Shown here in pieces: positions 11,204-53,114 of a DNA stretch of 58,605 nt. Positions within the stretch are counted from its first letter, which is position 1; the number at the start of each line of letters is the position of its first letter. This DNA is from an uncultured Saprospiraceae bacterium (GTDB taxonomy: Bacteria > Bacteroidota > Bacteroidia > Chitinophagales > Saprospiraceae): the NCBI GenBank assembly GCA_964508975.1, contig CAZDVQ010000024.1, positions 1-58,605 of the forward strand, written 5' to 3'. Both the position numbers and the translations under genes were made by a program. A model generated the notes under the pieces. It saw only the letters and a program-made list of their open reading frames with translations, searched no databases and had not been told where the DNA came from.

Positions 11204-13450
11204 TTATTTACTTAGGTTTAATCGAAATCCGAGAAATGCTCTAATGCCTTGTACTGGGGCATACATGTAGCTGGGGTCAAAGGTGTAGCCGTTGGGGTTG
11301 TTCAAGGGATCGTCCACGTTTTGGTCAAAAGGGTCAAATGGCCTTAAAATGGGGTCTTGGGGTATAAAGTTCAACATGTTTTTTAAGCCTCCATACAGCG
11401 TTATGCCCTTGGGAAAGGTTTTGCTCATTTGAAAGTTTACAATGCTGAACCAAGGTGAAAAAGCGGGTCTAAAATCGTTGGGAACCACGGGCAAGCGCAT
11501 GGGGCCGTTTAAACGGGCGGTGATGTCGAACTTCAGTCCTGTTTTCGCCCAATCGTAACTCAGGTTCATGGTACCAGATACAACCGGGGTGTACACTTGC
11601 CTTTGTTTCACCGATTGGTTTACTTCAAAAACATCTAGTATTGTAGCCCCGATGACAGCTTTCAAGCCGAAGTCTAGGTACACATCGGCGTTGGCGCTAA
11701 AACCCCTTGAAACGGCGTAACCATCTAGGTTTTCATAGATGATTTTACTGGGGTCCGTATCGAAGTCGGCGGTAATTTTATTGTTGAAATAGGTGTAAAA
11801 AGCGCTGAAATCTAAACCCACAAAGCCCTTATCGGAATTAAGTTGTGTGCTGTAGTTGACATTCACGTTCCAACTCTGTTCGGGGTTTAACGAATCCATG
11901 ATAACCACGTCCCTGGCGCCACTTAAAGCCGCATGGTCTTCGGCAAATAAATTAACTACCCGGTAGCCATTACCCATGCTTAACCTCAAGGTATTCAGGC
12001 GGTTAGGCTGATATTTAAGGCTTAATCGGGGGCTTATAATGGAGCCGTGGTTCATGTGGTAATCGTACCTTATACCCAGCAACAAGTTTAAATTGCGGTG
12101 TATAGCCCAATCGTCTTGCGCAAAAATACCGGGCAGTACGCTCGACATTGGTTTGTTCTCCACCTCACCTGCACGTAGTTGTTCGGTTACCACCGAGTTG
12201 TCGTCGTAGTAGGTGTACCGCACGGGTAAGCCAAACAGTAATTCGTGTTTACCCACTTTTTTATCCCAGAGCCATTGCACAAAACCTATTTGTTGAATAG
12301 CGTTGTAGGCCATGGTGCCATAATAACTGCGCTGCTGGTGTATATTGTAACTGTATTGTAAACGGGTATTTTCTGCTCCAATTTTTAAACCGTAATGCCC
12401 AATCAACTCTATTCTACCTGTACGGATAATTTCGCCGTAAATGCTATCGCTGCCAGCATATTGAGGCTTAAATTGTAGTTCTCCGCCCCAGCGCTGTTCG
12501 GCCAAACCTCTAAGCGCAAATGAAAATGCTTGTCCTGATTTCCGTTTAATATCCCAGCGGTTGAATACTGAAATGCGTTTTTGCTGGGCTATATCGCTAA
12601 AGTTATCCCCGTTGATATCGTGTAGTTTATTGTACCAGTAACCATGTACCCCCAGTATACCGTTGGCCTTTGGTGTACTAATACGTGTGCTGGCATCCAG
12701 GCTCAATTCTTGCCACGATGTAGCCATCACATCTAGGTATAAAGCGGGTGTTGAACTATGATCTTTGGTAATCACGTTGATTACCCCGCCCACGGCCTCG
12801 CTCCCGTACAAGGTCGATGCTGGTCCTTTGATGATTTCAATCCGTTTCACCAAGCTGTTCGGAATCCCCGACAAGCCGTACACCGTAGACAAGCCCGATA
12901 CAATTGGCATCCCGTCGATTAGCACCATGGTGTTGGGCCCTTCCATACCGTTTATGTGGATATCGCCCGTGTGGCAAACGTTGCAGTTGAGCTGCGGTTG
13001 TATACCGTTTATCGCCCCGATAGATTCAAATATACTTGGCGTCGGGTTTTTTAAGAAAAACTGGTTACTGTATACTTCAACGGCTACACTGCTGGCCATG
13101 CGACTGTTTTCCTTGAGCGTGCCGCTCACCACAAGTTCTTGTAGTTCTTGCCAATTTTCAACCAGCCTGAAGTTGTACTGTGTTTGCCCCGCGTGCAGGT
13201 TCACACTATCGGTCTTGTACCCAATGTAAGTGCATATCAAAGGCTTGCCCAAGTCGTCAGGACTTATGGCTAGGCTATATTTCCCCTCCGCGTCAGTGTA
13301 AACCCCTCGTTGGCCCGAGCCCACATACAGGTGCGCGCCAACTAAGGCTTCACCGCTGTTTTGGCTGCGTACTTGCCCTTCTACCACGACGTTTTGCGCC
13401 ATGCAGTTTATGGTAAGCCCGCAAAAAAGCACCAAAGGAATTATATTCAT
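11204..13450 (-). CDS. TonB-dependent receptor with N-terminal carboxypeptidase-regulatory-like domain
   Basis: 748 aa with signal peptide, a CarbopepD_reg-like N-terminus, a plug domain (TLYGSEAVGGVINVITK) and a C-terminal beta-barrel ending in an aromatic-rich segment. Co-located with the ZnuA-like protein and DtxR-family regulator, suggesting metal uptake. Confidence 0.85.
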   Translation of the reverse strand: MNIIPLVLFCGLTINCMAQNVVVEGQVRSQNSGEALVGAHLYVGSGQRGVYTDAEGKYSLAISPDDLGKPLICTYIGYKTDSVNLHAGQTQYNFRLVENWQELQELVVSGTLKENSRMASSVAVEVYSNQFFLKNPTPSIFESIGAINGIQPQLNCNVCHTGDIHINGMEGPNTMVLIDGMPIVSGLSTVYGLSGIPNSLVKRIEIIKGPASTLYGSEAVGGVINVITKDHSSTPALYLDVMATSWQELSLDASTRISTPKANGILGVHGYWYNKLHDINGDNFSDIAQQKRISVFNRWDIKRKSGQAFSFALRGLAEQRWGGELQFKPQYAGSDSIYGEIIRTGRIELIGHYGLKIGAENTRLQYSYNIHQQRSYYGTMAYNAIQQIGFVQWLWDKKVGKHELLFGLPVRYTYYDDNSVVTEQLRAGEVENKPMSSVLPGIFAQDDWAIHRNLNLLLGIRYDYHMNHGSIISPRLSLKYQPNRLNTLRLSMGNGYRVVNLFAEDHAALSGARDVVIMDSLNPEQSWNVNVNYSTQLNSDKGFVGLDFSAFYTYFNNKITADFDTDPSKIIYENLDGYAVSRGFSANADVYLDFGLKAVIGATILDVFEVNQSVKQRQVYTPVVSGTMNLSYDWAKTGLKFDITARLNGPMRLPVVPNDFRPAFSPWFSIVNFQMSKTFPKGITLYGGLKNMLNFIPQDPILRPFDPFDQNVDDPLNNPNGYTFDPSYMYAPVQGIRAFLGFRLNLSK

Positions 13451-13454: not shown

Positions 13455-13630
13455 TGTTTTGTTGTTTTTTGGGCGGCCCGCCCGCTACGCGGTCGGCGCT
13501 ACGCTACGCGGCTCGCTGTTCGCTCGGCCCTTCGCCGCCGTGGGCAGGGGCAAGCCCTGCCCCTACAATGCGGCGGCTCGGTCTGGCGGCTACGCCGCCA
13601 CCGCTCCGCATCGCTGCCGCAGGGCCCTCT
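13455..13630. repeat. GC-rich REP/MITE-like repeat, longer variant with internal hairpin
   Basis: Reads ttttttgggcggcccgcccgctacgcgg...gctcgctgttcgctcggccc...gggcaggggcaagccctgcccc (hairpin)...ccgcagggccctc. Confidence 0.8.
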
Positions 13631-22606: not shown

Positions 22607-23800
22607 ATGTCGCAACTCAAAAATCTAGTACAAGCCCAAGCCCAGGCCATCTTTGGCCAAGTACTTGAACTACGCCGCCACTTGCACGCCCACCCCGAGC
22701 TATCGTTCGAGGAGGCTCAAACCAGCGCTCACCTCGCCCAGATGCTACAATCGGCAGGCATACCTTTCCAAGCAGGCGTGGCGGGTCATGGTATCGTGGC
22801 CCTGATTAAAGGCGATTTACCCGGCGACAAAGTCATTGCCCTGCGTGGCGATATGGATGCCTTGCCCATCCACGAGGCCAACGACGTACCTTACCGCTCT
22901 CAAAACCCCGGCGTGATGCACGCCTGCGGCCACGATGTCCACAGTGCCTCGGTGATGGGGGCTGCCCTTATTTTAAACCAGTTGAAAGCACATTTTGGTG
23001 GCACGGTTAAAATCTTGTTCCAACCGGCCGAGGAAAAACTACCCGGTGGCGCTTCGCTGATGATAAAAGCTGGCGCACTGGAAAACCCCAGCCCAAGCGC
23101 TATCCTAGGCCAACATGTTTACAATCCCATCGAGGCGGGTAAAATTGGTATCCGTTCGGGTATGTACATGGCCTCTGCCGACGAGATTTACGTTACCGTT
23201 AAAGGTCAAGGTGGTCACGGTGCTGTACCGCAAGATTGTGTCGACCCCGTGCTTGTATCTGCACACCTTATCGTGGCCTTGCAGCAAATCGTTAGCCGCA
23301 ACGCCAACCCGACCATTCCCTCGGTCTTGTCGTTTGGTAAGGTAGAGGCCAACGGCGCTACTAATATCATTCCCTACGAGGTGAAAATGGAAGGTACTTT
23401 CCGCACCATGGACGAGGCATGGCGCAGCAAGGCGCACCATCGCATGAAACAACTAGCCGAAACCCTTTGCGAGAGTATGGGTGCCACCTGCGAGTTCCGC
23501 ATTGAAAAGGGTTATCCCACCTTGTTTAACCACGAGGCCCTTACACAAGATGTACGGAGCCTGGCCGAAGCATATCTCGGCCCAGAAAACGTTGAAGACC
23601 TGCCCATCCGCATGACCGCTGAGGATTTTGCCTACTACTCGCAAGTGATGCCGGCTTGTTTCTGGCGCTTAGGCACCGGCAACAAGGCCAAGGGGATCAC
23701 ATCACCCGTACATACCAACACCTTCGATGTGGATGAATCTAGCCTCGAGGTTGGTAGCGGCCTCATGGCCTGGCTGGCGATTAATTATTTAGTGCGTTAG
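22607..23800 (+). CDS. M20D-family amidohydrolase (N-acyl-L-amino acid amidohydrolase/hippuricase-like)
   Basis: Metal-ligand motifs HACGHD, QPAEE and H.....GGHGA. The ORF-track start at 22292 runs through the repeat; the ATG at 22607 (MSQLKNL) is the likely start. Confidence 0.85.
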   Translation: MSQLKNLVQAQAQAIFGQVLELRRHLHAHPELSFEEAQTSAHLAQMLQSAGIPFQAGVAGHGIVALIKGDLPGDKVIALRGDMDALPIHEANDVPYRSQNPGVMHACGHDVHSASVMGAALILNQLKAHFGGTVKILFQPAEEKLPGGASLMIKAGALENPSPSAILGQHVYNPIEAGKIGIRSGMYMASADEIYVTVKGQGGHGAVPQDCVDPVLVSAHLIVALQQIVSRNANPTIPSVLSFGKVEANGATNIIPYEVKMEGTFRTMDEAWRSKAHHRMKQLAETLCESMGATCEFRIEKGYPTLFNHEALTQDVRSLAEAYLGPENVEDLPIRMTAEDFAYYSQVMPACFWRLGTGNKAKGITSPVHTNTFDVDESSLEVGSGLMAWLAINYLVR

Positions 23801-23821
23801 GCCAATGTCATTCAGCGTGAT

Positions 23822-24012
23822 TTATTTGGGCCATTTCAGGGCATGATAAGACAGATGCTGCCCAAAGGGCAGCCCATATCGGTAGCCGCGGGTAAGCAAA
23901 GCGCAACCCGGGGAAATTGAGCAACAACAGAAAACCCGTGGTGGCAAGCCGTTTGGATAGGTACGATACAGGAATCGCCACGGAACGATAGCCGTACCGA
24001 AACCCGGTCGAG
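23822..24012 (-). repeat. about 180-nt structured repeat element (family B), minus-orientation copy
   Basis: Its reverse complement aligns at about 80% with 42497-42700 (ggtttcggtacggctatcgttccgtggcgatt...ccccgggttgcgctttgcttacccgcggctaccgatat...ctgccctttgggcag). A partial inverted third copy lies at 24195-24265. Confidence 0.75.
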
Positions 24013-24194
24013 CGTAGCTCGGCCCAACCCCCGCTACCAACGGACGCGCAGCGTCTGTGCAGTGGAGGGGGGAGGCGCATAAGGCCTTAATTCCTATTTA
24101 AATTTGCAATAAAAACTTGTATCCATTGCGCGGCGAGGCAAGGTCTTGCCCCTTTTTTAACGATAACCGCCGCGCATGGGCTTGGGTTTACGTT

Positions 24195-24265
24195 GCGTTA
24201 ATTACCCCGGGTTGCGCTTTGCTTACCCGCGGCTACCAATATTGTCTGCCCTTTGGGCTGATCTG
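24195..24265 (+). repeat. partial copy of the family B structured repeat (3' module)
   Basis: attaccccgggttgcgctttgcttacccgcggctaccaatattgtctgccctttgggc, inverted relative to 23865-23935 and direct relative to 42610-42675. Confidence 0.7.
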
Positions 24266-24372
24266 CGTTAGGCATGCGAAGCGTGGCCGCAACGCGGCCA
24301 GCCCGTAGGGCCGACCGTCCAGGGAGCGCGTAGCACGCCGGCGACGCGCCTCGCGCGGTGCAACGCCCCAAT
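24265..24372. repeat. GC-rich REP/MITE-like repeat
   Basis: ttaggcatgcgaagcgtggccgcaacgcggccagcccgtagggccgaccgtccagggagcgcgtagcacgcc...cgccccaataaaaaacc, the same family and orientation as 8076-8186. Confidence 0.8.
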
Positions 24373-24427
24373 AAAAAACCTCCTGAACCGAGCGTGAAGC
24401 ACAAGTTACAGGAGGTTGGGGTTGCTG
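24372..24427 (-). terminator. rho-independent terminator downstream of the MltD-like gene
   Basis: Stem acctcctg / caggaggt. On the minus strand the hairpin is followed by TTTTTTATTGGGG. Confidence 0.5.
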
Positions 24428-24444
24428 GGGAGCAATATATTTTC

Positions 24445-34990: not shown

Positions 34991-35129
34991 AATATATTTT
35001 TGATTCGTTCCCATTTAATTTAATTTTTTTTAAACATCCTTGTCAATCGTTGGAAAATTGGCTCTTATGCAAATCTTAGGTTATTGGTTGGTTTGAGAAG
35101 TTTTGTAAATGTGTCACCAAATGCAATGG

Positions 35130-37445
35130 CTAATATTTCGATTGTTTTAAAAAGTCTTTTAGTTTAATCGTCGTTATGCCAAAACCCTTGCATTTAAGCT
35201 GTATGCCATTGTCTGATGTCAACATAATAGGGTTTTCTTTTTTGTATTTAAGTGCAACTGTCAAAATAAAATTATCTGGCGATTTTTTGTCAAAGTCACT
35301 TGGCAACAAAGTCAGGTCGGCTATATCCATTTTGATATTCCGTTTGTCAAAACTGTCGTTGATTTGTTTGATTGCTTTTTGAACATTTTGTTTTTGTTGT
35401 TCTGTTTGCAGCGTTACTTTCAGTTTGTCCAACTCGTCAATGACTTTTGCAGATAAGACTATTTTATACTGTTTGTCAATTTTTGAAATTATGTCGGGCT
35501 GGTCAACAAATACGTTAGTGTCAATAATATAAATATTTTCCCTCCCATTAACGATTTCTTTCTTAGGCTTTTCAAATTGGGAAAGGTCTATTTTGCCAAG
35601 AACCTTTAATCCTGTTTGACTTTCTAATTTTTCTTCATCCTCAGGTGTATTTGATTCTGTCGTTTTGCTTTCAATTAGTTTTTTTTCAGTGGTATAATAA
35701 AACGAATATTCTTCATTTAATTTTTCAAGATAAGTTTTAACATATTTATTTAATTGAAAATCGGAACTGATAATATCCTTGTCTGCAATTATGATTGTAT
35801 GACGTTTTGAACGGCTTGTCGCAACATTGAACAAACGCTTTTCTAATGAATGATTGTAGCCTGAATTTGGAATTACCAAAATGGTTACGTCTGTGGTAAG
35901 ACCTTGTATTCTTGCTACTGTTTCAATCAATAAATTTTCATGGTTGTCAATTGATCCGTAAATGCTTTTTTGTAATGCCTTTACTGTCTCAATGTAATTG
36001 CTTAAAACAGAGATGTGCAATTTTTCTTCGACAGTCAGTAGATGAGTAACTAACAGCTTTGCTATTGCCGATGCGTTTACAGGCTTTTTACTTCCAACTT
36101 CCAAATCTGTTTTAATAAGCGTTGAACCGCCCTCCGGATTGAAAAATACGTTCACTTCATTAGTCATTTCAGGAAATGAAAGTCGTATGTCTGATTTTGA
36201 TTTTGATTTTAAACTGTTATTGTAGAACAATCCTGTGTAATAAGAACCTCTGTTTGGCAAACGATATGTTTCTGTAAGTTGATAAATCGGAACAGCAGAA
36301 GTATCTGCAAGAGCTTTCAATCCCTCCACTAAAATCTCATAATTCTTTTTACCTACTTTATCATCACTGATTGCAATAACTGGAGGCAACTGCATTGTGT
36401 CACCAATCCAAATATTTTTCTGCCCTAAAAGTTTTGCTGCACCAAACATTGCAAGTAACGCCTGGCTTGCTTCGTCAACTAATACATAGTCAAAAGGCGG
36501 TGTATTCGCAATCTTAGTTGCTTCGGTGCTTGCTATAAAAAAGGTGGATAAAACTAACTTGCCTGGTTGTGGATTTATATCCTTTGTCGGTTGTAATCTT
36601 GGAATTTCTTTGGCTTCATCTGTTGATATTTTGGTTTTAAAAACTTTACCCTCATCTAGAATAGTTGCTAATGCTGGTTTTTCAACGACTTCAATTAACG
36701 CTCTATTTGTAAGCGATGTAACTAAAACGGATTTTCCTTGCTCACATAAAAGTTTACAGATTTCAGCTATTTGATAGGTTTTTCCTGTGCCAGGAGGTCC
36801 TATCAAAACAACGTTATCGGATAATGTTAATTGATTTAATATGAAATTTGGTATATCATTTTTTTCATCAAGTAATGAAGGTTCCCCATTGGTTTTTAAA
36901 AAGTCTTGGTCTAAAATTGAACTTACTGCTTCAGAGTAGTTATTCTTAACTATTTTTTGTAAATTCTCTATATACCCATAGGGTGGGACATTCGGGCCTA
37001 AAAGCAATATAATTTTTTCCGCTTTTGAAATATTTACCGAAAAATCCAATTCAACACCACGAAAACCTGCGATGTAAAAGTCTTTATCAAGATTCCCGTC
37101 CTTGTCTTTTGACGGAGCTTGCCAAACGCAAACAGTTTCAGTAAAATTTCCTTTTTCTTTTATTAAGTCGCCATACGTTTTCTTACCCCAATTTCTGTAA
37201 TCTCTCAACTCTTTTGGAACAGTAAAACAATACAAATACTCGCCTTTGCGCGGTAAGCCACGTTTAGTTGAGAATTTTAAGATCATTTCTCCGTCTTTGA
37301 AAGTCAAAAATTGAGCAACAAAAAGCTCTTCCCTTTCTTGAAGCAAAAACGTAGCGGAAGTATTTAACTTTTGGTTAAATGCTTTCGTTTGTGCTTGAAG
37401 TTCTTCCTCAAGAAAGTTGCAGTGTTCTTGTCTAGTATATTTCAT
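35130..37445 (-). CDS. Upf1/DNA2-like SF1 helicase fused to a C-terminal PIN-domain nuclease (candidate defence effector)
   Basis: 771 aa. Walker A LIGPPGTGKTYQ, motif II DYVLVDEASQ, arginine finger/motif VI NVATSRSKRHTIII. C-terminal roughly 150 aa is a PIN fold with acidic residues in IYIIDTNVFVD, IDELDKL and TSDNG. The ATG at 37445 directly abuts the TAA of the upstream gene. Confidence 0.8.
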   Translation of the reverse strand: MKYTRQEHCNFLEEELQAQTKAFNQKLNTSATFLLQEREELFVAQFLTFKDGEMILKFSTKRGLPRKGEYLYCFTVPKELRDYRNWGKKTYGDLIKEKGNFTETVCVWQAPSKDKDGNLDKDFYIAGFRGVELDFSVNISKAEKIILLLGPNVPPYGYIENLQKIVKNNYSEAVSSILDQDFLKTNGEPSLLDEKNDIPNFILNQLTLSDNVVLIGPPGTGKTYQIAEICKLLCEQGKSVLVTSLTNRALIEVVEKPALATILDEGKVFKTKISTDEAKEIPRLQPTKDINPQPGKLVLSTFFIASTEATKIANTPPFDYVLVDEASQALLAMFGAAKLLGQKNIWIGDTMQLPPVIAISDDKVGKKNYEILVEGLKALADTSAVPIYQLTETYRLPNRGSYYTGLFYNNSLKSKSKSDIRLSFPEMTNEVNVFFNPEGGSTLIKTDLEVGSKKPVNASAIAKLLVTHLLTVEEKLHISVLSNYIETVKALQKSIYGSIDNHENLLIETVARIQGLTTDVTILVIPNSGYNHSLEKRLFNVATSRSKRHTIIIADKDIISSDFQLNKYVKTYLEKLNEEYSFYYTTEKKLIESKTTESNTPEDEEKLESQTGLKVLGKIDLSQFEKPKKEIVNGRENIYIIDTNVFVDQPDIISKIDKQYKIVLSAKVIDELDKLKVTLQTEQQKQNVQKAIKQINDSFDKRNIKMDIADLTLLPSDFDKKSPDNFILTVALKYKKENPIMLTSDNGIQLKCKGFGITTIKLKDFLKQSKY

Positions 37446-40400
37446 TTACAATAATTCTTCATCATCACCAGTTAATTCTTCTTCGTTTCTTCTTTCGTCG
37501 AAACGGTAATCGCTTAAATCTTTGGCTATGCTATAATCGCTCGGATTTACACTATTAAAATCAAAGTGGACGTTGCCGAAGTAATGAAGCAATTCGGCAA
37601 ATTTATCTAATCTGTCCTCTACATCAAGATTTTCTGTGCTAAAACTAATAGTAAGCTTATCCTGATTTCTCAATAAATCATATAATTTTAAGCATCCTAA
37701 TTTCCTGTTTCCAAAATGTAACCAAAACATTGAATTTGGTTTCATTAGTTGTATCCATTCGTTTGCTCCAATTTTTAAAGGCTCGTCTTCATATTTGTAA
37801 CTTTTTACAACAATCGGAAATTCAACATTATCTTTATAAACACCGTCAATTGTTGAGAACTTGCCTATTCCTTCAGTAAATTCAAATCCTTCTCTTTCTA
37901 ATTTTTCCTTGACAATTTCTTTTGCTTCTCGGTTAGCTTCTTTTTGGTCGTTTTTAGAAATGTCTGTGCTAAATTCACTTCCTAATGTAGCGTCGCTTGA
38001 TCTTCTTAATTGTGCGTTTTCTTTTTCTAATATTTCTAATTTGTTTTGCCACAATCCGTCAAAATTAAAATCGTTATACTCCTCCAATTCTAATTTTCTT
38101 AGTTCTTTTTTTACATCTGCGTTTTGATTTATGTAAATATTGTTTTTATCATCAACTGCGGTATTGCCTTCAAAAAAAGAATAGAACACATAATCTTCAA
38201 TTTCATTAAGTGAAATTGTTTTAGGTAATTCGCCTTCGTATAGAAAAATAGCAACATTAGAATCCTTTTTCCAATTTTCATAATATGATTCTTCCCACAC
38301 TAATGCGTTCTCTTCTAACTCTTCAACATCCAAATCCTCTTTAATTTCTAAATCTCCATTGTTGGTTCTGTTTTCATTGATAACTTCAACTACTTTCTTA
38401 AATGTTTCAAATTGTTCCGCTGTTTTGAATGTAACTTCGTTTTCTTTAAGCCAAACCAACGAATTGAATAGGTTTAATTCACCTTCGTTAAAACGTGTTT
38501 CTTGTGACAAACGATTGTTTTGAAAATCTTTTATTTTACCGCTTAAATATTTTCGCAATACAACAATGACAGAGCTTTCTGTCCACACGCCCAAGTCAGA
38601 AAGGAAATCAATTTTGGCATCTTCTTCACCAAGCCATTCTATTAGATAATCAGGTAGTAGTTCACTTTCACAAGCGTATTTACTTGGATAAACGGATGTT
38701 GTTGGATTGAATCCTAAAATGTTTTCAGTTTTTACATCATCAATTGTATTCCAATCAATATTTTTGATTGACGTCTTTTTACTTTTCTTATTCCACTGAT
38801 TGAATAAAAACTCTATAAGACTTAGTTTCTGCTCATCTGATAAATTTTCTTCAATGTACGGACAAATGAATTTAGCGTCTTCAAAATAAGGTTCTTTAAT
38901 GAGCAATAAATTATCATTGTCTTCTACTACAACAGGAAAGTCTTTGAATATTTTAGAAATACTTCTGTATTTTTTATGAAGTATTTCGGATTGCTGTATA
39001 AAATCAAAGTCCGTTAAATATTTATCTGTTCCCAGTTCTATTTCTTCTTCATTTACGTTTAGGGCATTAAACTGATTAAAATTTATTTTTTCAATATACA
39101 AACCGTAAAGAAACAAAAATGCTAATTGTTCGGCATTTTCCAATGTTTCAACTTGTTCAGAAAACATTTCATAAATGACGCTTGGTTCAGGTTCTTCACT
39201 TACGCCAAACAAATTCCCAATTCGCTCTTTGTTCAAACCAAGTCCAATAAAATGATTTATCAAACTGCTTAAATAGTCGCTGTTTTCGTAATTGTCTGGG
39301 AGAATTTTAGCAAGACTTATTTCATAATTATCAATTTTAATTTTATCCGTGAAGGGTGGAATTTCAGAAAGTTTTAAATCTTGATTTTCCGTTTCAATGA
39401 CAACTTTTTCTTTGAATTTTAGATAATCGTTTTCTTTCAGTTCACTACAAGCTAAATCTAAAATTTTATACTCGTAATCCTCCCTAGAGTATTCATTTTT
39501 AGAATTAAATCTGAACTCTGATAGTTGTTGTAAAAACTTGTGTTTGGCTTTATATTTTACTATATCCACAAGTATTTCTTTGTGTTCATCTGCATCAACA
39601 AATTCCAAAATCAAACCGTGCAAATCATCGGCTTTTATTATACCTTCTTCGTCCTTGTAGTTTTCCACAAACTCATAAGGAAGAACAAATAAATTGTCAG
39701 CACAATTTTCATCTAAAAATTTTCTTGCTTCCTTATCGGCTGATTGAACCTGATAGGTTTCGCTTGTTTTTTTATCGATTATAAAGTCTTTATTCTCTTT
39801 TTTAATTATGAACTCTTTGAAGAATGATTTTTGATTGTCTTGATAAAGATTAATAAGCGATTTAATTTCCTCTGCTGTTGTTAATTCAGCAATTATATCA
39901 TCTTGATTTTGTTGGTAAATTTCTTTGAAAATATTCCCTGAATCTAAAATCAGGTAGGGGTAGAGTTCAGCAAAGTATTCATCTTGTTTTATTTTGTGTG
40001 CGTTTAACCAACTTGGCGTTTTAATATTACCTATAAGTTCGCTTAGTGGTTTTATTTCTGAATTATTATTGCAAAATAATTCTAAGTTTTTTAATGTGCC
40101 TTCAGCAACATTATCAAACTTTGTTGTTTCGTTAATAAAACTGAGAAATAAAGTTTTCTTTTCTTTGGCTGACAAGGTGTTAGTTTTGCATTTTTCAGCA
40201 ATATAAGTGTACATCTGTTTTTCGTCAGGCATTATTTCAATACAAGAAAAAATGTTTGGATATTCAGAAGTAGTAATTTCAGATACAATGATTCCAATTT
40301 TGTCAAGCTCTTCTACGATGCCTATTGTTTTTTGTATTTTGAAAAAAACATTAGCAAAACCATAACTAGCGATAGTTCTATTTTGTGAGATTTGTTTTTT

Positions 40401-42128
40401 TACTATTTCATTGAACGAATAGAACTCGTCATTGGAAAATTTAAAAAGTTTGATTTGAGAAAGTTTCTCTTTAGTTTCCTTGCGCAAATAACTTTCTTCT
40501 AATTCATCTAAAAATGATTCATAAGTTTTTTTATCACAAGTAGCAATCCAATTATTTATACTTACCAGATTGGCATTTTCTACAATATCTCTGATGTCCC
40601 ATTCTTTAAGGCCCAATTTTTCTGTTTTGGTTGCTTCGTTAATCAACAATTTATCTACCTCACTATCCCACTCAAACCATTGAATATGGTTCAATCCTAA
40701 TTCCGATAAGTTTATAGAGAGTTTGAGCTTATTAATTTTTACGTTTTGAGCGTTGTCAGAAAAACCAATTTTGGTTGGTATATTTTCAGATAGGTATTGA
40801 TGAATGAAATTTGAAAAACTATTACTTATATGAGGCTTGTTTTTGGGGTCTTTCGACAGTAGAAAGTTAGAGTACAAAGACAAAAACAAATTACGGTTAT
40901 TTTCTTTCTGTATATCTGAATACTTAATTACGTTTTGTGCAATTAAGGGCAAAAGCTTTTCGTTGATTTGAGAATTAGCTTGAAGTTTACGCCTGTCATT
41001 ATTCATGTCAAAGGCATTGCAATGCAACAAAAAACTAAAACCATTCTTTTCTTCGTCCATAGAAAAGAACGTGTAAAGATTTGGTGCTAATTCATTTTGT
41101 AAATCAACAGCCTTTTTGTAATCATGATAAAATGCAAATGTGAATTTTATGTCCCGATTTTTATTTTTTGGATTTATGTCTTTGAATTCATTACTGCCAA
41201 TAGGAAAAGAATCTGAATAATCCAAAACAGCTTTTGCTTTGATTTCTTCGTCATTGATGTATATTTTTTGCAAGCTGTTCAAAAATTTGAAAGAATATGA
41301 CAATCCACTTTTAATTTTATCGATACCCTCATCAAGAAATTTGCTTTTACCCTTACCTAGTTTGAGAAAGAAGATTGAGCCGCTTTTTAAATTGTTTGTT
41401 TCTTTCAGATTTACGTTTTGCAGTGAATGTTTTAAAAATGTCCTCATTTCGGACAATTCGTTTTTTGAAAACCTTATGCCTTCTGTATCGTAGTTTTGCA
41501 ATTTTAATTTTTCGTCCAAATGAGAAGGAAAACAAGTGTAAAGCAATTTTATAAGCCAAGGATTTTCGCTATCCTTTGTTACGTCGAAGCCTACTTTGAT
41601 TTCATCTTCCTTTAGAAATGCATCTAATTGAAAAAATTTATTCCAGCTAAAAATGATTGGCCCTGCATAATCGTTTATTATAGCTTCTCTTCCATCATCA
41701 GCACCAACTAATCTGTGTAAAATTTTGAAGCCAATACCAAATGTGCCAATATCTTCTCCATCTTTGTAGTTGCCAGCAACATTGATGATTGCGGACATGT
41801 CACGGTCTGAAAAATAATTCCCATTGTTTATGCAGAGTAAATAGTCCTCATTGTAGCTCACGCTAAAAAAAGACGATTTACAATCGTCAGCGTTTTGAAT
41901 AAGTTCATATATGGCTTGGTCGTCTGCGGCTACGTTTAAAGCAATTGTTCCTAGTAGTTTTCCTAAATCTTCCCTATTACCATAAATCAGTTTTGAAAAT
42001 CCAGTTTCTCTACGTTTTCTGTCGGGATGTAATGAACCCACAAAGTTGAGGTCTATATAACCACTTTCTCTCGCAACTTCTTCTTTGTAGAATCTACGAA
42101 AATAAAAAGCATTTCTTGTGTATAACAT
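37446..42128 (-). CDS. giant sacsin/Hsp90-like GHKL ATPase with C-terminal DUF3883/PD-(D/E)xK-like domain (candidate defence protein)
   Basis: The ORF track starts on TTG at 42197; the first ATG is at 42128 (MLYTRNAF). GHKL N-box AIYELIQNADDC and G2 box GTFGIGFKILHR. About 1200 aa of low-GC helical middle region. The C-terminal segment GFEFTEGIGKFSTIDGVYKDNVEFPIVVKSYKY fits a DUF3883/restriction-endonuclease-like D...E.K core. Confidence 0.8.
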   Translation of the reverse strand: MLYTRNAFYFRRFYKEEVARESGYIDLNFVGSLHPDRKRRETGFSKLIYGNREDLGKLLGTIALNVAADDQAIYELIQNADDCKSSFFSVSYNEDYLLCINNGNYFSDRDMSAIINVAGNYKDGEDIGTFGIGFKILHRLVGADDGREAIINDYAGPIIFSWNKFFQLDAFLKEDEIKVGFDVTKDSENPWLIKLLYTCFPSHLDEKLKLQNYDTEGIRFSKNELSEMRTFLKHSLQNVNLKETNNLKSGSIFFLKLGKGKSKFLDEGIDKIKSGLSYSFKFLNSLQKIYINDEEIKAKAVLDYSDSFPIGSNEFKDINPKNKNRDIKFTFAFYHDYKKAVDLQNELAPNLYTFFSMDEEKNGFSFLLHCNAFDMNNDRRKLQANSQINEKLLPLIAQNVIKYSDIQKENNRNLFLSLYSNFLLSKDPKNKPHISNSFSNFIHQYLSENIPTKIGFSDNAQNVKINKLKLSINLSELGLNHIQWFEWDSEVDKLLINEATKTEKLGLKEWDIRDIVENANLVSINNWIATCDKKTYESFLDELEESYLRKETKEKLSQIKLFKFSNDEFYSFNEIVKKQISQNRTIASYGFANVFFKIQKTIGIVEELDKIGIIVSEITTSEYPNIFSCIEIMPDEKQMYTYIAEKCKTNTLSAKEKKTLFLSFINETTKFDNVAEGTLKNLELFCNNNSEIKPLSELIGNIKTPSWLNAHKIKQDEYFAELYPYLILDSGNIFKEIYQQNQDDIIAELTTAEEIKSLINLYQDNQKSFFKEFIIKKENKDFIIDKKTSETYQVQSADKEARKFLDENCADNLFVLPYEFVENYKDEEGIIKADDLHGLILEFVDADEHKEILVDIVKYKAKHKFLQQLSEFRFNSKNEYSREDYEYKILDLACSELKENDYLKFKEKVVIETENQDLKLSEIPPFTDKIKIDNYEISLAKILPDNYENSDYLSSLINHFIGLGLNKERIGNLFGVSEEPEPSVIYEMFSEQVETLENAEQLAFLFLYGLYIEKINFNQFNALNVNEEEIELGTDKYLTDFDFIQQSEILHKKYRSISKIFKDFPVVVEDNDNLLLIKEPYFEDAKFICPYIEENLSDEQKLSLIEFLFNQWNKKSKKTSIKNIDWNTIDDVKTENILGFNPTTSVYPSKYACESELLPDYLIEWLGEEDAKIDFLSDLGVWTESSVIVVLRKYLSGKIKDFQNNRLSQETRFNEGELNLFNSLVWLKENEVTFKTAEQFETFKKVVEVINENRTNNGDLEIKEDLDVEELEENALVWEESYYENWKKDSNVAIFLYEGELPKTISLNEIEDYVFYSFFEGNTAVDDKNNIYINQNADVKKELRKLELEEYNDFNFDGLWQNKLEILEKENAQLRRSSDATLGSEFSTDISKNDQKEANREAKEIVKEKLEREGFEFTEGIGKFSTIDGVYKDNVEFPIVVKSYKYEDEPLKIGANEWIQLMKPNSMFWLHFGNRKLGCLKLYDLLRNQDKLTISFSTENLDVEDRLDKFAELLHYFGNVHFDFNSVNPSDYSIAKDLSDYRFDERRNEEELTGDDEELL

Positions 42129-42496
42129 TATATTTTTATTTTTTGGAATTGATGATGTGTCCGCAATGCGGTTGTGACACAAGTAAATGTGTTGCAACGG
42201 TGTCGGCTAATGCATTGGTTTTCAAATCTTTTGATTTTGTGAAGTCTTGGCATTTTGTCTGTTGTATTACTGTTTGTTTTTGTTGTGTCGTCTTTTAGCA
42301 TCACAACCAACCTCCCCGCAGCCACAACTCCCCTGGCTTTATAGTGTCACTATTCAGGTTTAATGAATAGAACAAGTAGCTAGTACCCGTGTGTGTTGTG
42401 TTACAACGAATGATAGGTCCTGTGCAAAGGTATTGAAAATATGCTAATCTCAGTAATTTTTATCATCAATTTATAGGGCATTTTACGTGCTTTGGG

Positions 42497-42700
42497 TGCT
42501 TGGTGCTTGGTAAGGCTCGATGGGGTTTCGGTCCGGCTACCGTTCCGTGGCGATTTCTGTATTGGGCATTCTCGTCTGGCTTGCCGCCACGGGGTTTTGG
42601 TTGTTGCTTTAAACCCCGGGTTGCGCTGCGCTTAACCCGCGGCTACCGATATTGCCTGCCCCTTGGGCAGGATTTAGCGCGCAGCACGCAGCGTGAAATT
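42497..42700 (+). repeat. about 180-nt structured repeat element (family B), plus-orientation copy
   Basis: Aligns with the reverse complement of 23822-24012 and contains the hairpin ctgcccc-ttg-ggcag. Lies immediately upstream of a GC-rich repeat, the same composite arrangement as at 23.8-24.4 kb. Confidence 0.75.
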
Positions 42701-42711
42701 GTGAGTTAAAT

Positions 42712-42848
42712 CAAACCATCGCCAGTACACGATTCGGCTTAGCTGCCTGTAGGGCGCCGCCGCAGGCGGCGGTGCGCGTAGCGCACGGAGCGAATAGCGA
42801 ACCCCGGAAGGGAGCGGCCCGCGCAGCGGGAAAGCCCCAAAAAAGAGC
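42712..42848. repeat. GC-rich REP/MITE-like repeat at the other boundary of island 1
   Basis: ccatcgccagtacacgattcggcttagctgcctgtagggcgccgccgcaggcggcgg...cggagcgaatagcgaaccccggaagg...aaagccccaaaaaag. Confidence 0.8.
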
Positions 42849-46465: not shown

Positions 46466-46467
46466 GG

Positions 46468-46872
46468 GCAGTTCTGCCCCCCTGTCTTCACTTCGTTCAG
46501 ACATCCCCCCACTCGCTTCGCTTCGCGTGGGGGGATGTCACCAGCGCTAGCGCAGTGACAGGGGGGCAGACGGGCATCGCCAAAATTGCGCCTCCCCCCG
46601 GCGCTGCACGCCGACCCCCTCCACTGCACAGACGCTGCGCGGCCGTTGGTAGCGGGGGTTGGGCCGAGCTTAGCTCGGCCGAGGGGGGACGCAGCGGCAA
46701 AAACTGTACTAATCGTAGCGCCTGCTTAGGGCATGTCCGTTCATAGTTCATTGTTCATCTTTTCCTAGCGCCAGGTGCCCGGCGGGCGCGGCTGGAAGCC
46801 GCGGTGCGAAGCACGGAGCGAAGCGAACCCCAGAGGGGACCGCCGCCGCGCAGCGGCGGGGCGCCCAAAAAC
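46468..46872. repeat. composite GC-rich repeat region (nested hairpins plus REP/MITE-like copy)
   Basis: Nested inverted repeats ggggcagttctgcccccctgtc ... gacaggggggcagac and gacatccccccac ... gtggggggatgtc. A 46621-46690 segment is shared with 24010-24062 (ccactgcacagacgctgcgcg.ccgttggtagcgggggttgggccgagct). The region ends with gttcatagttcattgttcat plus ccaggtgcccggcg...ggggcgcccaaaaacc, as at the 6.7-kb copy. Confidence 0.8.
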
Positions 46873-46907: not shown

Positions 46908-47672
46908 ATGAACCCTCGTGTAAAAGCCCTGCTGGATGCCAAGCTGCTGGAATATAACCAGCCCGGCTTTATTGCTGACGACCCTATTTCAATCCCGCAT
47001 CGGTTTAGCCAGAAACAAGATATTGAAATCACTGCTTTTTGGGTGGCCATGCTGGCCTGGGGACAACGCAAGAGCATTATCAACAGTGCCAACAAGCTGA
47101 TTGCCTTGATGGATAACGCGCCCCACGACTTTGTGCTGAACCATGCCGAAACCGACCGCAAGCGTTTTCTGGATTTTGTACACCGTACCTTCAACGCCAC
47201 GGATGCCTTGTATTTCCTCGATTTTTTCCAGCGGTACTACCAGCAGCACGATAGCTTGGAGCAAGCCTTTTCGCGGTTTATCAGTCCTGCCGATGAGCAC
47301 GTGGAAGCGGCTTTAATTGGTTTTCACCGTTTATTTTTTGACCGTCCTTACGCGCCGCAGCGCACGCGTAAACACGTGAGCACGCCCGAGCGAAAATCGA
47401 CTTGCAAGCGGCTCAACATGTTTTTGCGCTGGATGGTGCGGCAAGATAACGCCGGCGTCGATTTTGGTATCTGGCAGGAGGTAAAGCCCGGCCAACTGCT
47501 CGTGCCACTGGATGTACACGTAGAGCGCCAAGCCCGGATGTTGGGCCTCATTGAGCGCAAACAAACCGATTGGCAAACGGTGTTGGAGCTAAGCGCAACG
47601 CTGCGTCAACTTGACCCCTCGGACCCCGTGAAATACGATTATGCGTTGTTTGGGATGGGGTTGGAGCGTTAA
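46908..47672 (+). CDS. TIGR02757/DUF2400-family protein
   Basis: 254 aa with a conserved Bacteroidota hypothetical pattern (FWVAMLAWGQRKSII...RLNMFLRWMVRQDNAGVDFGIW). Confidence 0.55.
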   Translation: MNPRVKALLDAKLLEYNQPGFIADDPISIPHRFSQKQDIEITAFWVAMLAWGQRKSIINSANKLIALMDNAPHDFVLNHAETDRKRFLDFVHRTFNATDALYFLDFFQRYYQQHDSLEQAFSRFISPADEHVEAALIGFHRLFFDRPYAPQRTRKHVSTPERKSTCKRLNMFLRWMVRQDNAGVDFGIWQEVKPGQLLVPLDVHVERQARMLGLIERKQTDWQTVLELSATLRQLDPSDPVKYDYALFGMGLER

Positions 47673-48580
47673 ATCAAACCCAATTCTTTAGCTTCTTGTA
47701 TGGCGGACTCTACTATTGACTGCTCTACGCCTAAAGTAAGGGCAATAGTTTGAATATCATGCCCTTTTTTATATTGATCAATAATTTCTAGGGCAAGCCG
47801 CACGCCTTCTTCCTTTCCTTTTTCGATGCCTTTTTCGATGCCTTCGAGATTGCCTTTTTGAATTCCTTTATTGTATAGGTAGTCGGTTTCAACGTCTTCA
47901 AGTTCAATGTAGATGGGCATGGTGTTGAAGTTTTCGATTAAAAGATGGTCAAATTTACGTAAACGTGCTAAGTTGAGCAACTGTGCGTGATATTTTTTTA
48001 GTTTGTTGAGGTCATGACAACATTGATGCAATTTTATGACTATAGAACGCAAAACTTGTTCTGTTTGTTCCTTGCTAAACTTGGCAAACACTGCGAAGAT
48101 AATCACCTCGGGCACTTGGGAGGAGAGGAATTGCTCTGGGTCCAGCTCATTCAGCGTGATGATGTCGTACTCAAAATGTGAACGAAGCCCTGTAAGCTGC
48201 CGAACCATGCGATGTGGCTTAGAGTCTAGATAGATAACTATTTGCCAAACGGGTAGTTTGTATTTTTGGCTAATCAAGCCATAATAAACCAGCATCCTAT
48301 AGTGCATTTCAGGGTCGGTTCTAGATTGGAATTCCATATGAACCAACAGGCGTGTACCATCTGCTTGTGTCACCTCGTACAACATGTCAAGTTCTCGTTC
48401 CAAGGTACTTTGTAGCTTGCCGGGCAAAGGTTTTATGTTAATCCATCTCGCATCAGGGGTCAGTGCCTTGAACAACTCCAGGGCATTTTCCTTGATGATT
48501 TTATCATAGATGTTCCCTGTATCGGGTATGGGGGGAATCGGTTTGTTTTCCATGTCGCAAAGTTCTGGCGACTGGCCCAT
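47669..48580 (-). CDS. Rpn-family recombination-promoting nuclease/putative transposase (PD-(D/E)xK, YhgA-like)
   Basis: N-terminal nuclease core (LLVHMEFQSRTD) and a C-terminal DUF4351-like helical tail with repeated EKGIEKG. Alternative start at 48553 (MENKPIP). Confidence 0.65.
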   Translation of the reverse strand: MGQSPELCDMENKPIPPIPDTGNIYDKIIKENALELFKALTPDARWINIKPLPGKLQSTLERELDMLYEVTQADGTRLLVHMEFQSRTDPEMHYRMLVYYGLISQKYKLPVWQIVIYLDSKPHRMVRQLTGLRSHFEYDIITLNELDPEQFLSSQVPEVIIFAVFAKFSKEQTEQVLRSIVIKLHQCCHDLNKLKKYHAQLLNLARLRKFDHLLIENFNTMPIYIELEDVETDYLYNKGIQKGNLEGIEKGIEKGKEEGVRLALEIIDQYKKGHDIQTIALTLGVEQSIVESAIQEAKELGLI

Positions 48581-48919
48581 TAAACCTATTCGACTGGGTT
48601 ATACTTGACCCGTTTAGGTAATACTATATTACAATTTGCGAAATTTTTGGAATATCGCCCCCGTCTAAGCCCCAACGACACATTTTCCGCTCCAATCTCC
48701 TCTCTTCTATCTCCGCTCTCCTATCTAAGCCCCGTGGCCCACATTGACCACGGGGACCGCCCAAAATGAATAAATGATAAAGGGAATAAATGAATAAACG
48801 ACATGCACGGCACTTACCTTAATGTACCAATTAAAGGGTACATACTTACACGTATATAGACTCTGTAATTTGATAGGTATTTGTTTTCGGTATTCTAAAA
48901 TGCCGTAGACTTACGCCCG

Positions 48920-50350
48920 CTAGTCCTCGCGACTACCGTCAGCAGCCATACGCACCATTTTTGGTTGGAACATGGCCACCACGTCAACCAGCTCGGTTTG
49001 CGCTTGCATCACCTCGTGGATGTTTTTGTAGGCCATCGGTGCCTCGTCGAGACCACCGCCAATCAAGGTTACGCCGTGTAGTTTCAACTCGTCGCGCAGG
49101 GCTTGCTTGGTCCCAGCCTTGATGGCCTTGGTTCGGCTCATCTGTCGACCAGCGCCGTGCGAGGCTGATTGCAACGCGCTTTCAACTCCTTTTCCGCGCA
49201 CCAAGAAGCCTGGTGCCGTCATGCTACCTGGGATAATACCCATCACGCCTTTGGCGGCAGGGGTTGCTCCTTTACGGTGTACAATCACTTCCTCGCCGTT
49301 CCAGATCTCTTTCCAGGCGAAGTTATGGTGGTTTTCTACCTTGGCCAACACGTGGCCACCGATGGCTGCCGTCAGTTTTCGGTGGATGACCTCGTGGCAG
49401 GCCGAGGCGTAATCGCCAGCCAGGTTCATGGCCAACCAGTACTCCATACCTTCTTGGCTATCCAGCGACAAGTACGCTAGGTTTTGGGCTTCTTGCGGCA
49501 ATTTACACAGGCTCTTGGCCAACTTGGTGTAATGCCCGGCAATGGTTGCCCCGAAACCGCGTGAACCAGAGTGGGTCAACAAAGCCACGTATCGGCCTTT
49601 TGGTATACCCAGGACCTCGTCGGCCTGGGCAAACTCAATGATGCCCCACTCCACGAAATGGTTTCCACCACCCGAGCTCCCCAGTTGGGAATAAGCCTTA
49701 TCACGCAGGTTTTTCACGAAAGGGTTGATGTTGAACAAGTCGTTTTCCAGCACGGCATGGTCGCTCTTGTACTGTGGTTTAAAGCCATGTCCAGCGCCAA
49801 ACAAGCTATGGGCAATCAACTCGCGTTTGTACTTGGCCTCGTTTTCCAAGAAATGGCTTTCCGGGATATCGTAGATACTCAAGGCCATTCGGCAACCGAT
49901 GTCCACGCCCACGCCGTAAGGTATAATCGCATTCCGGGTAGCCAACACCCCGCCGATAGGCAGGCCGTAGCCCTGGTGGGCATCTGGCATCAAGGCCCCG
50001 GCCACGGTAACGGGTAGTTTCATGGCGGTTTTCATCTGTAGGTGGGCGCCTTCCTCGATATGTTCGGTCCCGAACACGGCGTACTCGGCAGGGTTTTCCA
50101 ACAGCTCGATACAGGCATCGGCTTCGGCTTGCTCGGCGATATCCAATAGGCAGCGGGCTACTTGGTTAAAGTATTCCATATCCAAGAAATCGGCTGGGTT
50201 TTCCAGCACTTGTTGCAGGGTTTGCAGCAAGATCTCGGCTGGCATATGCGGCAAGTGTTGCTCGGCGATTTGCAAGGCAATACCGATGGCCTTGTTCTCG
50301 GCATAGCCGAGGGCGAGGAGATGTTCTCCGCCTATAATATTATTTTTCAT
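48920..50350 (-). CDS. rtcB: RNA-splicing ligase RtcB
   Basis: 476 aa with metal/GTP-binding motifs DAHQGYG, GVDIGCRM, HSGSRGFG and NHHNFAW, and the catalytic His in SHGAGR. Confidence 0.9.
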   Translation of the reverse strand: MKNNIIGGEHLLALGYAENKAIGIALQIAEQHLPHMPAEILLQTLQQVLENPADFLDMEYFNQVARCLLDIAEQAEADACIELLENPAEYAVFGTEHIEEGAHLQMKTAMKLPVTVAGALMPDAHQGYGLPIGGVLATRNAIIPYGVGVDIGCRMALSIYDIPESHFLENEAKYKRELIAHSLFGAGHGFKPQYKSDHAVLENDLFNINPFVKNLRDKAYSQLGSSGGGNHFVEWGIIEFAQADEVLGIPKGRYVALLTHSGSRGFGATIAGHYTKLAKSLCKLPQEAQNLAYLSLDSQEGMEYWLAMNLAGDYASACHEVIHRKLTAAIGGHVLAKVENHHNFAWKEIWNGEEVIVHRKGATPAAKGVMGIIPGSMTAPGFLVRGKGVESALQSASHGAGRQMSRTKAIKAGTKQALRDELKLHGVTLIGGGLDEAPMAYKNIHEVMQAQTELVDVVAMFQPKMVRMAADGSRED

Positions 50351-51035
50351 AGTATGGATTTAACTCCACAAAAGTCAATTTTACTAATAATTTTAAAAAT
50401 TCAAAGGACTTTTGCGTAAATTCATTCACAAAGCCTTGTGATGTTATTTGATAAGACCTATGAACACCAGGTTTTCCATCTAATAAGCAATGATAGTTTG
50501 AATTCAAAAGAATTCCATCCAGTTTTTGTAGGAATGATTCGAAGTTGTCCTGTTTTGCGCTGAAATAAAAACTACCCATGGGATAATGGGCAAATTGGTT
50601 TCTCAGTATTCTAAATAGGTATATTTGAGTTCGTAATGACTGAAATTCCTGGGATAAATTTACATCTTTAAGCAGATTATTCATGGCATCTTCTGGGCTT
50701 GAATAAGTTACAATTTCTGTGGGCTCTAAATTTTTGCACCTCCATTGGTAATGAAAAAGTATGTTGTTTATAGAATTATCTAATAGAATAGTCAATTCAA
50801 TCAATGCGTTTTTAAACATTATAGAGTGAGTTATGCTTTCTACCCCTGCTTTCTTTTCCAATGAATTATTTATAATGCATTCGCTAGCAAAAGAATAAAT
50901 ATTAATCACATTGTTCACACCCGCAGCATATTCTTGAGGGAGTCCATGCACTAAATTATCCCAAAAATTCTTGCCAAGCTTGTCATTTGTGGTTATTGAT
51001 GAAAATAATATTGAATGCCTTTTCCTTTTATTCAT
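50340..51035 (-). CDS. hypothetical protein with an RNxxAH HEPN-like motif (possible Abi/HEPN RNase)
   Basis: 231 aa, low GC, overlaps the rtcB start by 11 nt. Motif LFRILRNQFAHY fits R-x4-H, as in Abi_2/DUF4145-type HEPN domains. Confidence 0.5.
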   Translation of the reverse strand: MNKRKRHSILFSSITTNDKLGKNFWDNLVHGLPQEYAAGVNNVINIYSFASECIINNSLEKKAGVESITHSIMFKNALIELTILLDNSINNILFHYQWRCKNLEPTEIVTYSSPEDAMNNLLKDVNLSQEFQSLRTQIYLFRILRNQFAHYPMGSFYFSAKQDNFESFLQKLDGILLNSNYHCLLDGKPGVHRSYQITSQGFVNEFTQKSFEFLKLLVKLTFVELNPYYEK

Positions 51036-51083
51036 GATGGAGTAATATTAATTATTCGGAATACTAAAATATGTTTCAAAAAA

Positions 51084-51944: not shown

Positions 51945-52023
51945 GATTTGAGATTTAGAAGATTATTAGATTTTTTAGTTTTAAACTGGAATTTACATCA
52001 AGATTTAGCCATGATGATAGTGC

Positions 52024-52944: not shown

Positions 52945-52984
52945 GATTCGTTATTTTTCAATGTAATAGAAAGTAAGTTAAACG

Positions 52985-53045: not shown

Positions 53046-53114
53046 TCAGGTTTCAGCTGCTAGGCATCAGTATAATAACTAACCCCTAATAACTAAAACC
53101 TAATCCCTCACACC

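Follow-up and report, generated by a model that had tools for sequence, protein, structure and literature searches.

What is the hairpin-rich repeat that recurs between the genes of an uncultured Saprospiraceae bacterium, a small RNA or a piece of mobile DNA? The question is raised by a 58,605-nt stretch of contig CAZDVQ010000024.1 (hereafter the window), in which a sequence-only reading had described a repeat family with conserved hairpins and offered both possibilities. The mobile half of that proposal has held, on the evidence of a site that is empty in a sister strain, a 10-nt direct repeat, a recurring composite and an extra copy in the sister strain, whereas the RNA gene half has not. 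That a family with these hairpins is present is established, as are the repeated occurrence of the composite in one piece and a 10-nt duplication of the target at one filled site. Between two strains that are almost identical the family has undergone recent movement or loss, so that we regard it as selfish DNA, a repeat of a general type already known, and not as a novel gene for an RNA. Its members are probably non-coding, non-autonomous repeats of an uncultured member of the Bacteroidota, of the kind that comprises repetitive extragenic palindromes (REPs), bacterial interspersed mosaic elements (BIMEs) and REPINs.

The comparison rests on about 110 kb of DNA from two strains, the 58.6-kb window and ~54 kb of a sister strain. 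The latter comes in part from a 440-kb contig of JGI metagenome 3300047129, found by exact-protein look-up, whose loci L002 and L005 match the window at 97-99% identity across tens of kb. Two more copies lie on L087, a further contig from that metagenome, and short Logan contigs of SRR11802613 agree with the window at 100% identity. Seven copies were thus available from two strains: A, B and C in the window, E in L005, B2 in L002, and F1 and F2 in L087. All seven are intergenic, three in the window and four in the sister-strain DNA. Genes for type-IX secretion tails, Omp28 and SusC-like proteins fit a Bacteroidota host, and the closest relative of the M20 peptidase that borders the main site is found, among representative genomes, in a Saprospiraceae metagenome-assembled genome (65% identity).

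A covariance model (R1) with three hairpins was built on the aligned copies, and the window was scored with it at every position with filters off. Exactly three full-length matches, A, B and C, were returned and no others (Table 1). The sequence-only reading had counted two full copies and a 70-nt partial one at 24195-24265; since the model matches 24111-24266 end to end (model positions 1-149), the window instead holds three full copies, the third of which aligns end to end with sister-strain copy E and is diverged in its 5' half. The likenesses reported by that reading were recovered. The reverse complement of 23855-24013 aligns with 42515-42673 over 160 nt at 80% (A and B; blastn E=1e-34), 23852-23925 and 24192-24265 form an inverted repeat of 75 nt at 89% (E=5e-21) with an exact core of 59 nt at 93% and 281 nt between the arms, and a further module, termed D here, is shared in inverted orientation between 24005-24077 and 46609-46681 (73 nt, 92%, E=7e-25). 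The copies also stand beside a REP element, as had been stated: C abuts 24264-24345, B lies ~70-90 nt before 42740-42845, and the second D precedes 46763-46870. This GC-rich REP-type neighbour of each copy belongs to an abundant family of the window (repeat families D1, D2, D7, D13 and D14).

One unit measures ~150 nt and consists of three GC-rich hairpins. Hairpin 1 has an 8-bp stem and a ~30-nt loop and is followed by a spacer; hairpin 2 reads CCCCGGGT-TGCGCTTTGCTT-ACCCGCGG and is followed by CTACC and then 6-8 nt; hairpin 3 reads CTGCCC-TTT-GGGCAG. In copy C the stem of hairpin 1 is GCGCGGCG/CGCCGCGC where the other copies have CCGTGGCG/CGCCACGG, a difference of two compensating pair changes, and because both sides changed together the stem has been kept. 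Over the seven copies 95% of stem cells hold a standard pair, a share that drops to 35-44% if the partners are slid, and changes on both sides are seen at four pairs of hairpins 1 and 3, albeit in a small sample (seven copies) and with an alignment that had been fitted to the model. The copies share no open reading frame.

The likeness to REPs lies in hairpin 2. REPs are palindromes of 20-50 nt preceded by GTAG, which often form inverted pairs (BIMEs) and have an associated Y1 transposase, TnpA-REP or REP-associated tyrosine transposase (RAYT) (PMC8266576); their stems are 5-13 bp and their loops 2-20 nt long, and dimers with GTAG outward are the commonest (PMC3733652). Read on the complementary strand, hairpin 2 is GTAG followed by CCGCGGGT, a 12-nt loop and ACCCGGGG, a 32-nt imperfect palindrome, so that it too is a stem-loop within the 20-50 nt range with GTAG immediately 5'. 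The CCGCGGGT/ACCCGGGG stem is 8 bp, with a C.C mismatch in five of the seven copies and perfect pairing in E and F2, and the loop is 12-13 nt. In six copies (A, B, C, E, F2 and B2) nothing separates GTAG from the stem. The window contains other tagged palindromes, e.g. GTAGGGGCAGGGCTTGCCCCTGCCC, which occurs at 13541-13567 and 52990-53016, inverted and 39 kb apart; it consists of GTAG, GGGCAGGG, a 5-nt loop and CCCTGCCC and is a textbook REP. Several distinct families of tagged palindromes are present in the genome.

At site 1, the gap (23801-24444) between two convergent genes, for an M20 peptidase (ending at 23800, + strand) and a lytic transglycosylase/LysM protein (ending at 24445, - strand), two inverted units stand with their GTAG ends outward around module D and an AT-rich spacer, a composite of ~410 nt. 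L087 holds the same parts in the same order and orientation, an A-like unit (-), module D, the AT-rich spacer and a C-like unit (+), and window 23855-24262 aligns with L087 1297-1725 at a column identity of 81% over the aligned stretches, flanks included. Module D matches L087 1448-1515 at 98.5% over 68 nt and occupies the same place between the arms, and hairpin 3 of the A-like arm is CGCTCC...GGAGCG in L087 against CTGCCC...GGGCAG, a difference of three compensating pairs. A, D, the spacer and C are one recurring composite and not independent neighbours, and its presence at two unrelated loci calls for some mechanism of copying. Folded as single-stranded DNA, the composite (421 nt) pairs its arms over ~70 nt into one long stem of -126.8 kcal/mol, compared with -73.0 ± 4.8 for shuffles (z=-11.2). 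Its inverted REPs thus fold as one hairpin, in a composite found at site 1 and in L087 alike, as in a REPIN; the spacing of 281 nt between the conserved arms exceeds the tens of nt of a REPIN. No flanking duplication is visible on inspection around the L087 composite, a single site without an empty counterpart.

Two further observations were made on L087 and the module borders. The JGI call of a 'ribosome modulation factor' at L087 1627-1845 (P0001) is a spurious open reading frame (ORF) across a repeat copy, and short 'hypothetical proteins' containing ...CA(L/S)LTRGY... probably mark the family in other data sets. The motif CCTAATCGTAGC (reverse complement GCTACGATTAGG) is found at module borders at 46691-46715 of the window, L005 3302-3327, L087 1245-1258 and 1735-1748, and L002 ~497-512; in L087 it brackets the whole composite in inverted orientation. 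The motif resembles the direct repeat of site 1 and may be an end signal or a preferred target.

Movement is best documented at site 1, where the window has 461 extra bases (23803-24263) relative to sister locus L002. There, the M20 stop codon runs directly into the neighbouring REP, with a single TGCGTTAGGC and nothing between. In the window the insertion is flanked by two copies of this 10-mer, and deletion of 23803-24273, i.e. the insert and one copy of TGCGTTAGGC, restores the sister sequence. The flanking repeat is not chance, because an exact direct copy 300-700 nt downstream exists for only 74 of the 58,595 ten-mers of the window. The duplication also carries a locus-specific variant, TT where the neighbouring family (D7) usually has CC. 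The two sides of the insertion differ in that the right arm extends to where the insert ends, stopping 3 nt short of the right TGCGTTAGGC, while 52 unrelated nt separate the left arm from the duplication. By blastn this left segment (23803-23854) matches nothing else in the window and nothing in L002, L005 and L087, and inverted repeats were looked for at the exact ends of the insertion and none were found. A likeness of the segment, in inverted orientation, to the beginning of the adjacent REP was also tested and is not significant (score 15 against 12.7 ± 2.1 in shuffles).

Occupancy differs at all three sites between these two strains of 97-99% identity. At site 2 the sister strain lacks window 35116-42613 (7.5 kb, with two genes and the 5' half of B) and has 110 unrelated nt in its place; homology resumes exactly at 42614, the first base of hairpin 2 of B. 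An earlier remark that the repeat sits notably at an island edge has some substance, since the window-only block ends exactly at the boundary between hairpins 1 and 2 of B. B and its orthologue B2 are 83% identical over 42614-42760 and the following 200 nt are essentially 100% identical (by arithmetic from the alignments), so the shared copy is 17% diverged between strains with near-identical flanks. Hairpin 3 has the loop TTT or CTT in every copy of the window, and the loop TAC in E, F2 and B2 of the sister strain. Copies are closer to paralogues of their own strain than to the orthologue of the other strain, and this likeness indicates conversion or replacement. At site 3, between identical flanks, window 46467-46690 (module D with other GC-rich hairpins) and L005 2893-3296 take each other's place.

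Table 1. Positions of the repeat units, their parts and associated features, in window coordinates unless a locus is named.
Feature	Position	Strand	Description
Copy A	23852-24000	-	R1 165.9 bits, model positions 1-149
Copy A, parts	hairpin 3 23858-23872; GTAG + hairpin 2 23882-23913; hairpin 1 23936-23983		GTAG + hairpin 2 read on + strand
Copy B	42528-42676	+	R1 160.4 bits
Copy B, parts	hairpin 1 42545-42592; hairpin 2 + CTAC 42614-42646; hairpin 3 42656-42670		
Copy C	24111-24266	+	diverged; R1 134.2 bits, model positions 1-149
Copy C, parts	hairpin 1 24128-24175; hairpin 2 + CTAC 24205-24236; hairpin 3 24246-24260		
Copy B2	L002 402-531		R1 57.9 bits; sister-strain orthologue of B, 5' half degenerate
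Copy E	L005 3159-3306		full unit; sister-strain site 3, between DUF2064 and DUF2400 genes
Left direct repeat TGCGTTAGGC, 10 nt	23793-23802		includes M20 peptidase stop codon; identical to 24264-24273
Right direct repeat TGCGTTAGGC	24264-24273		also first bases of GC-rich REP-type repeat 24264-24345
Left segment, 52 nt	23803-23854		in strain-specific insertion, no match elsewhere
Module D	24005-24077	-	centre of composite; 92% to 46609-46681
Module D, second copy	46609-46681	+	no A/B/C-type unit adjoining in window strain
AT-rich spacer	24078-24110		contains AAATTTGCAATAAAAACTTGTA; this 22-mer identical in L087 composite
L001			metagenome contig, 66% GC; three module copies
L088			contig, 48% GC; four module copies
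L089-L092			four loci on three viral-collection contigs, 67-70% GC

Several other differences between the strains were seen in passing. The block 35116-42613 encodes two proteins, one of 771 aa that combines SF1-helicase-type AAA domains with a PIN domain at its C terminus and one of 1583 aa without a Pfam match; it lies in a low-GC (30-35%) island, adjoins MmeI/Eco57I-type methyltransferase genes and looks like variable defence-island cargo. At site 3 a GC-rich nested palindrome (46473-46570; outer stem TCTGCCCCCCTGTC/GACAGGGGGGCAGA, inner stem GACATCCCCCCA/TGGGGGGATGTC) lies just 3' of the stop codon of DUF2064; the sister strain lacks it and has different modules in its place. Also absent from the sister strain are 47661-48916, with a 303-aa ORF, and the low-GC 50345-53068, with ORFs of 231, 286 and 306 aa, none of which has a Pfam match; in that strain RtcB adjoins DUF2400 and a Band_7 gene at these places. 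Conversely, at L002 ~11527-11612 (window ~24315) the GC-rich REP next to site 1 is itself interrupted by an AT-rich insert of ~86 nt that the window lacks and that is made of small hairpins, e.g. TTAATGTG...CACATTAA and CCATTTGC...GCAAATGG, another small mobile or variable module. The longest inverted repeat of the window (54383-54469 and 55246-55332, 87 nt, 91% complementary, arms 776 nt apart) belongs to the GC-rich REP-type family and lies in a region that is 88-94% identical to the sister strain, with gaps.

Beyond the two strains, the module of hairpin 2, tag and hairpin 3 was found in unrelated contigs of 48-70% GC (L001, L088 and L089-L092; Table 1). Its loop, TGCGCT[GT][CT]GCT, is conserved across them, stem changes compensate on inspection (C-G to A-T and G-C to T-A), and each copy is followed, at a constant distance, by a small GC hairpin. 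In L001, inverted module copies flank a decayed gene remnant in which an N-terminal MAGTFTRLLYHVVFS is joined to a C-terminal GIEYDQRYLQD, pieces that we take to be the two ends of a Y1 transposase; these short fragments had no match in Pfam, NCBIfam or PDB. A second L001 fragment of 78 aa, nearby but outside the module pair, matches 111 proteins with E down to 4e-32, many of them PF01797 and several named from Planctomycetota, and is thereby confirmed as PF01797.

Searches for wider relatives were made in several ways. The exact pattern GGGTTGCGCN{5,9}ACCCGCGGCTACC had no match in representative genomes or viral contigs and a single match in metagenome contigs, in L001, another organism. A hidden Markov model of the element had no match in 80 loci from a genome scan for the M20 peptidase, blastn against plasmids gave none, and when the DUF2064 and M20 proteins were looked up in search of additional strains, the result was the same two samples or nothing. 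As repeats sometimes receive spurious ORF calls, the translation of the element was also searched as a protein profile. A 755-aa chimera of all six frames had no match, while a profile of the translated spurious ORFs that cross the element gave two useful protein matches, through which L087 and L088 were found.

Could the unit nonetheless be a family of small RNA genes or cis-acting RNA elements, such as 3' stabilising or terminating structures, with hairpins kept for RNA function? This is very unlikely, and an RNA gene is the least likely of the readings considered. Compensating changes do keep hairpins 1 and 3, every unit is on the same strand as at least one neighbouring gene, and the hairpin-1 loop of copy C contains a hairpin plus T-run. 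The conserved spacer before copy C (24093-24115) contains TAAATTTG (AAAATTTG in the L087 copy), which fits the Bacteroidetes -7 promoter consensus TAnnTTTG; alone this is no evidence, since ~40 occurrences are expected by chance in the window. However, no Rfam 15 family matched anywhere in the window at gathering thresholds, and at E<=10 two loci gave only chance-level matches (E >=0.36), a group II intron fragment, raised earlier as a possible identity, not being among them. ARAGORN found no tRNA or tmRNA gene. Single units fold at z about -1 relative to shuffles, except one strand of A at -2.9, no copy has a T-run after its last hairpin, and scans for sigma-70 promoters and terminators were uninformative. 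A hairpin of single-stranded DNA would account equally well for the compensating changes of hairpins 1 and 3, and the two informative G-T wobble/mismatch positions point to opposite strands on inspection. Orientation varies, as does context (convergent, divergent and co-directional intergenic), and strains of 97-99% identity differ in the sites that are occupied, a variable occupancy that selfish DNA fits better than a gene does.

Two other accounts of the movement stay alive, because the 10-nt duplication and the 52 unrelated bases at the left end misfit a REPIN driven by a RAYT. In one, either the 461-nt composite or each 150-nt unit is a conventional MITE (miniature inverted-repeat transposable element), an insertion sequence with internal deletions that is mobilised by a DDE transposase making a 9-10-bp staggered cut, and the likeness to REPs is incidental. 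Such an origin, which we consider unlikely, draws on the TGCGTTAGGC copies that flank the only insertion with a known empty site, on long inverted arms (74 nt at 89%), the right one ending 3 nt before the right TGCGTTAGGC, and on a size below 600 nt with no coding capacity. It is at odds with insertion ends that are not inverted repeats, 52 unrelated nt lying between the left repeat and the arm, with single units (B and E) that occur partnerless, and with the L087 composite, around which no duplication is visible; the available loci contain no parent insertion sequence. Moreover, a DDE-based MITE has no need of the GTAG and palindrome that are conserved in unrelated organisms, once near a Y1 pseudogene. 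The other account dispenses with dedicated transposition and sees a passive mosaic of recombination modules, comparable to a BIME cluster and shaped by homologous or microhomology recombination, deletion and gene conversion. Module combinations do vary (D occurs with or without units, an extra GC hairpin is confined to L087 and site 3, and GCTACGATTAGG stands at borders), at site 3 one module set stands in for another while the flanks are identical, an end of the 7.5-kb strain-specific block falls exactly within copy B, and the shared copy seems converted towards its own-strain paralogues. Yet a clean insertion that duplicates 10 nt together with their TT variant is hard to obtain through recombination alone, and a 410-nt composite at two unrelated loci requires copying, which makes a purely passive mosaic distinctly improbable.

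If the family is of the REP/BIME/REPIN kind, its copies would be spread or exchanged by an enzyme that acts in trans and is encoded elsewhere in the genome. The likeliest candidate would be a Y1 HUH transposase of the RAYT type recognising GTAG and hairpin 2 on single-stranded DNA, with hairpins 1 and 3 as putative accessory stem-loops joined to the REP hairpin, and gene conversion among copies would explain the homogenisation within strains. A benefit to the host, through protection of transcript 3' ends or termination between convergent genes, is speculation. A number of points weigh against the REP assignment. The tag of F1 is CTAG rather than GTAG and that of the related L088 module is ATAA, and the window as a whole contains 21 GTAG-tagged hairpins by loose criteria against 12.9 ± 4.3 in shuffles, which is not significant. 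The arms at site 1 are 281 nt apart, compared with the usual 20-100 bp in REP dimers (PMC3733652). The family is known from seven copies in two strains, and neither a Y1/RAYT gene (PF01797) nor any other transposase gene was found by Pfam or tblastn in the ~110 kb of the window, L002, L005 and L087, so that the suggested link to a RAYT is indirect, by analogy with another organism through L001. The site-1 insertion has 52 non-repeat nt on its left and extreme ends that are not inverted repeats. Finally, the direct repeat TGCGTTAGGC was seen at the only clean comparison of a filled and an empty site, a single case, and IS200/IS605-type and RAYT-type reactions are not known to duplicate their target.

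A bolder version of the REP reading, which we think improbable, would make the module of hairpin 2, GTAG and hairpin 3 an old recognition element that is found across phyla (45-70% GC, in Bacteroidota and Planctomycetota-like contigs) and serves one Y1 clade, present here in a REPIN-like composite of 410-460 nt that inserts with a 10-bp duplication. We know of no RAYT or IS200/IS605 reaction that predicts such a duplication. Were this version true, it would amount to an undescribed mobilisation of REPs, by a different enzyme or by repair-mediated insertion of a hairpin intermediate. In a variant of it, the three-hairpin unit may also act as an RNA, transcribed from the conserved spacer.

The spread of REPs and REPINs is known almost wholly from Proteobacteria and their actual movement has rarely been caught. 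A pair of strains that differs at every site of the family and includes one clean, datable insertion offers a natural Bacteroidota system in which to ask about the enzyme and the target duplication. The elements also have practical consequences, as they interrupt assemblies made from short reads (the window strain's Logan contig ends within the adjacent repeat), yield false genes (the JGI 'ribosome modulation factor' call) and coincide with the breakpoint of a strain-variable block in a low-GC island carrying restriction-modification-type genes. Current understanding is left unchanged: a known class is probably extended to a new lineage, with one odd feature left over.

Among known systems, bacterial MITEs and modular repeats include the Correia, RUP, ERIC and BOX elements. 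The present family resembles these in being small and non-coding, with inverted arms, presence or absence between strains, target duplication and modules that mix and match, and differs in that its very ends lack inverted repeats and its REP-type hairpin is conserved across phyla. REPINs, reportedly described by Bertels and Rainey in 2011, are REP doublets that form hairpins. The window composite shares with them two inverted REP-bearing arms that fold as one long hairpin (z=-11), recurrence of the doublet at unrelated loci and the existence of singlets, whereas it is ~4x longer than the REPINs of Pseudomonas and has a modular centre made of module D and the spacer.

Close parallels are also found among GTAG REPs and BIMEs (Di Nocera et al. 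2013, PMC3733652; Corneloup et al. 2021, PMC8266576). Common to these and to the family described here are GTAG followed by a GC-rich palindrome with, here, an 8-bp stem and a 12-nt loop that has an inner stem, an intergenic and multi-copy distribution with an inverted pair whose GTAG ends face outward (the 'HH dimer'), several tagged families per genome and, elsewhere, a related module near a Y1 remnant. Here, by contrast, the REP makes up only the central third of a 150-nt unit that is conserved, no RAYT gene was found within ~110 kb, the insertion has a 10-nt target duplication and the host is one of the Bacteroidota, which are barely represented in REP surveys. In Pseudomonas, a degenerate GTAG REP is joined to unrelated stem-loops in repeats that flank RAYT/TIRYT genes (PMC3733652). 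These double-palindrome terminal repeats and the present unit have in common a degenerate GTAG REP combined with unrelated stem-loops in a longer, multi-copy repeat, although here the sequences are unrelated and no transposase gene lies between the arms. This Pseudomonas arrangement is the nearest published architecture to the three-hairpin unit (PMC3733652).

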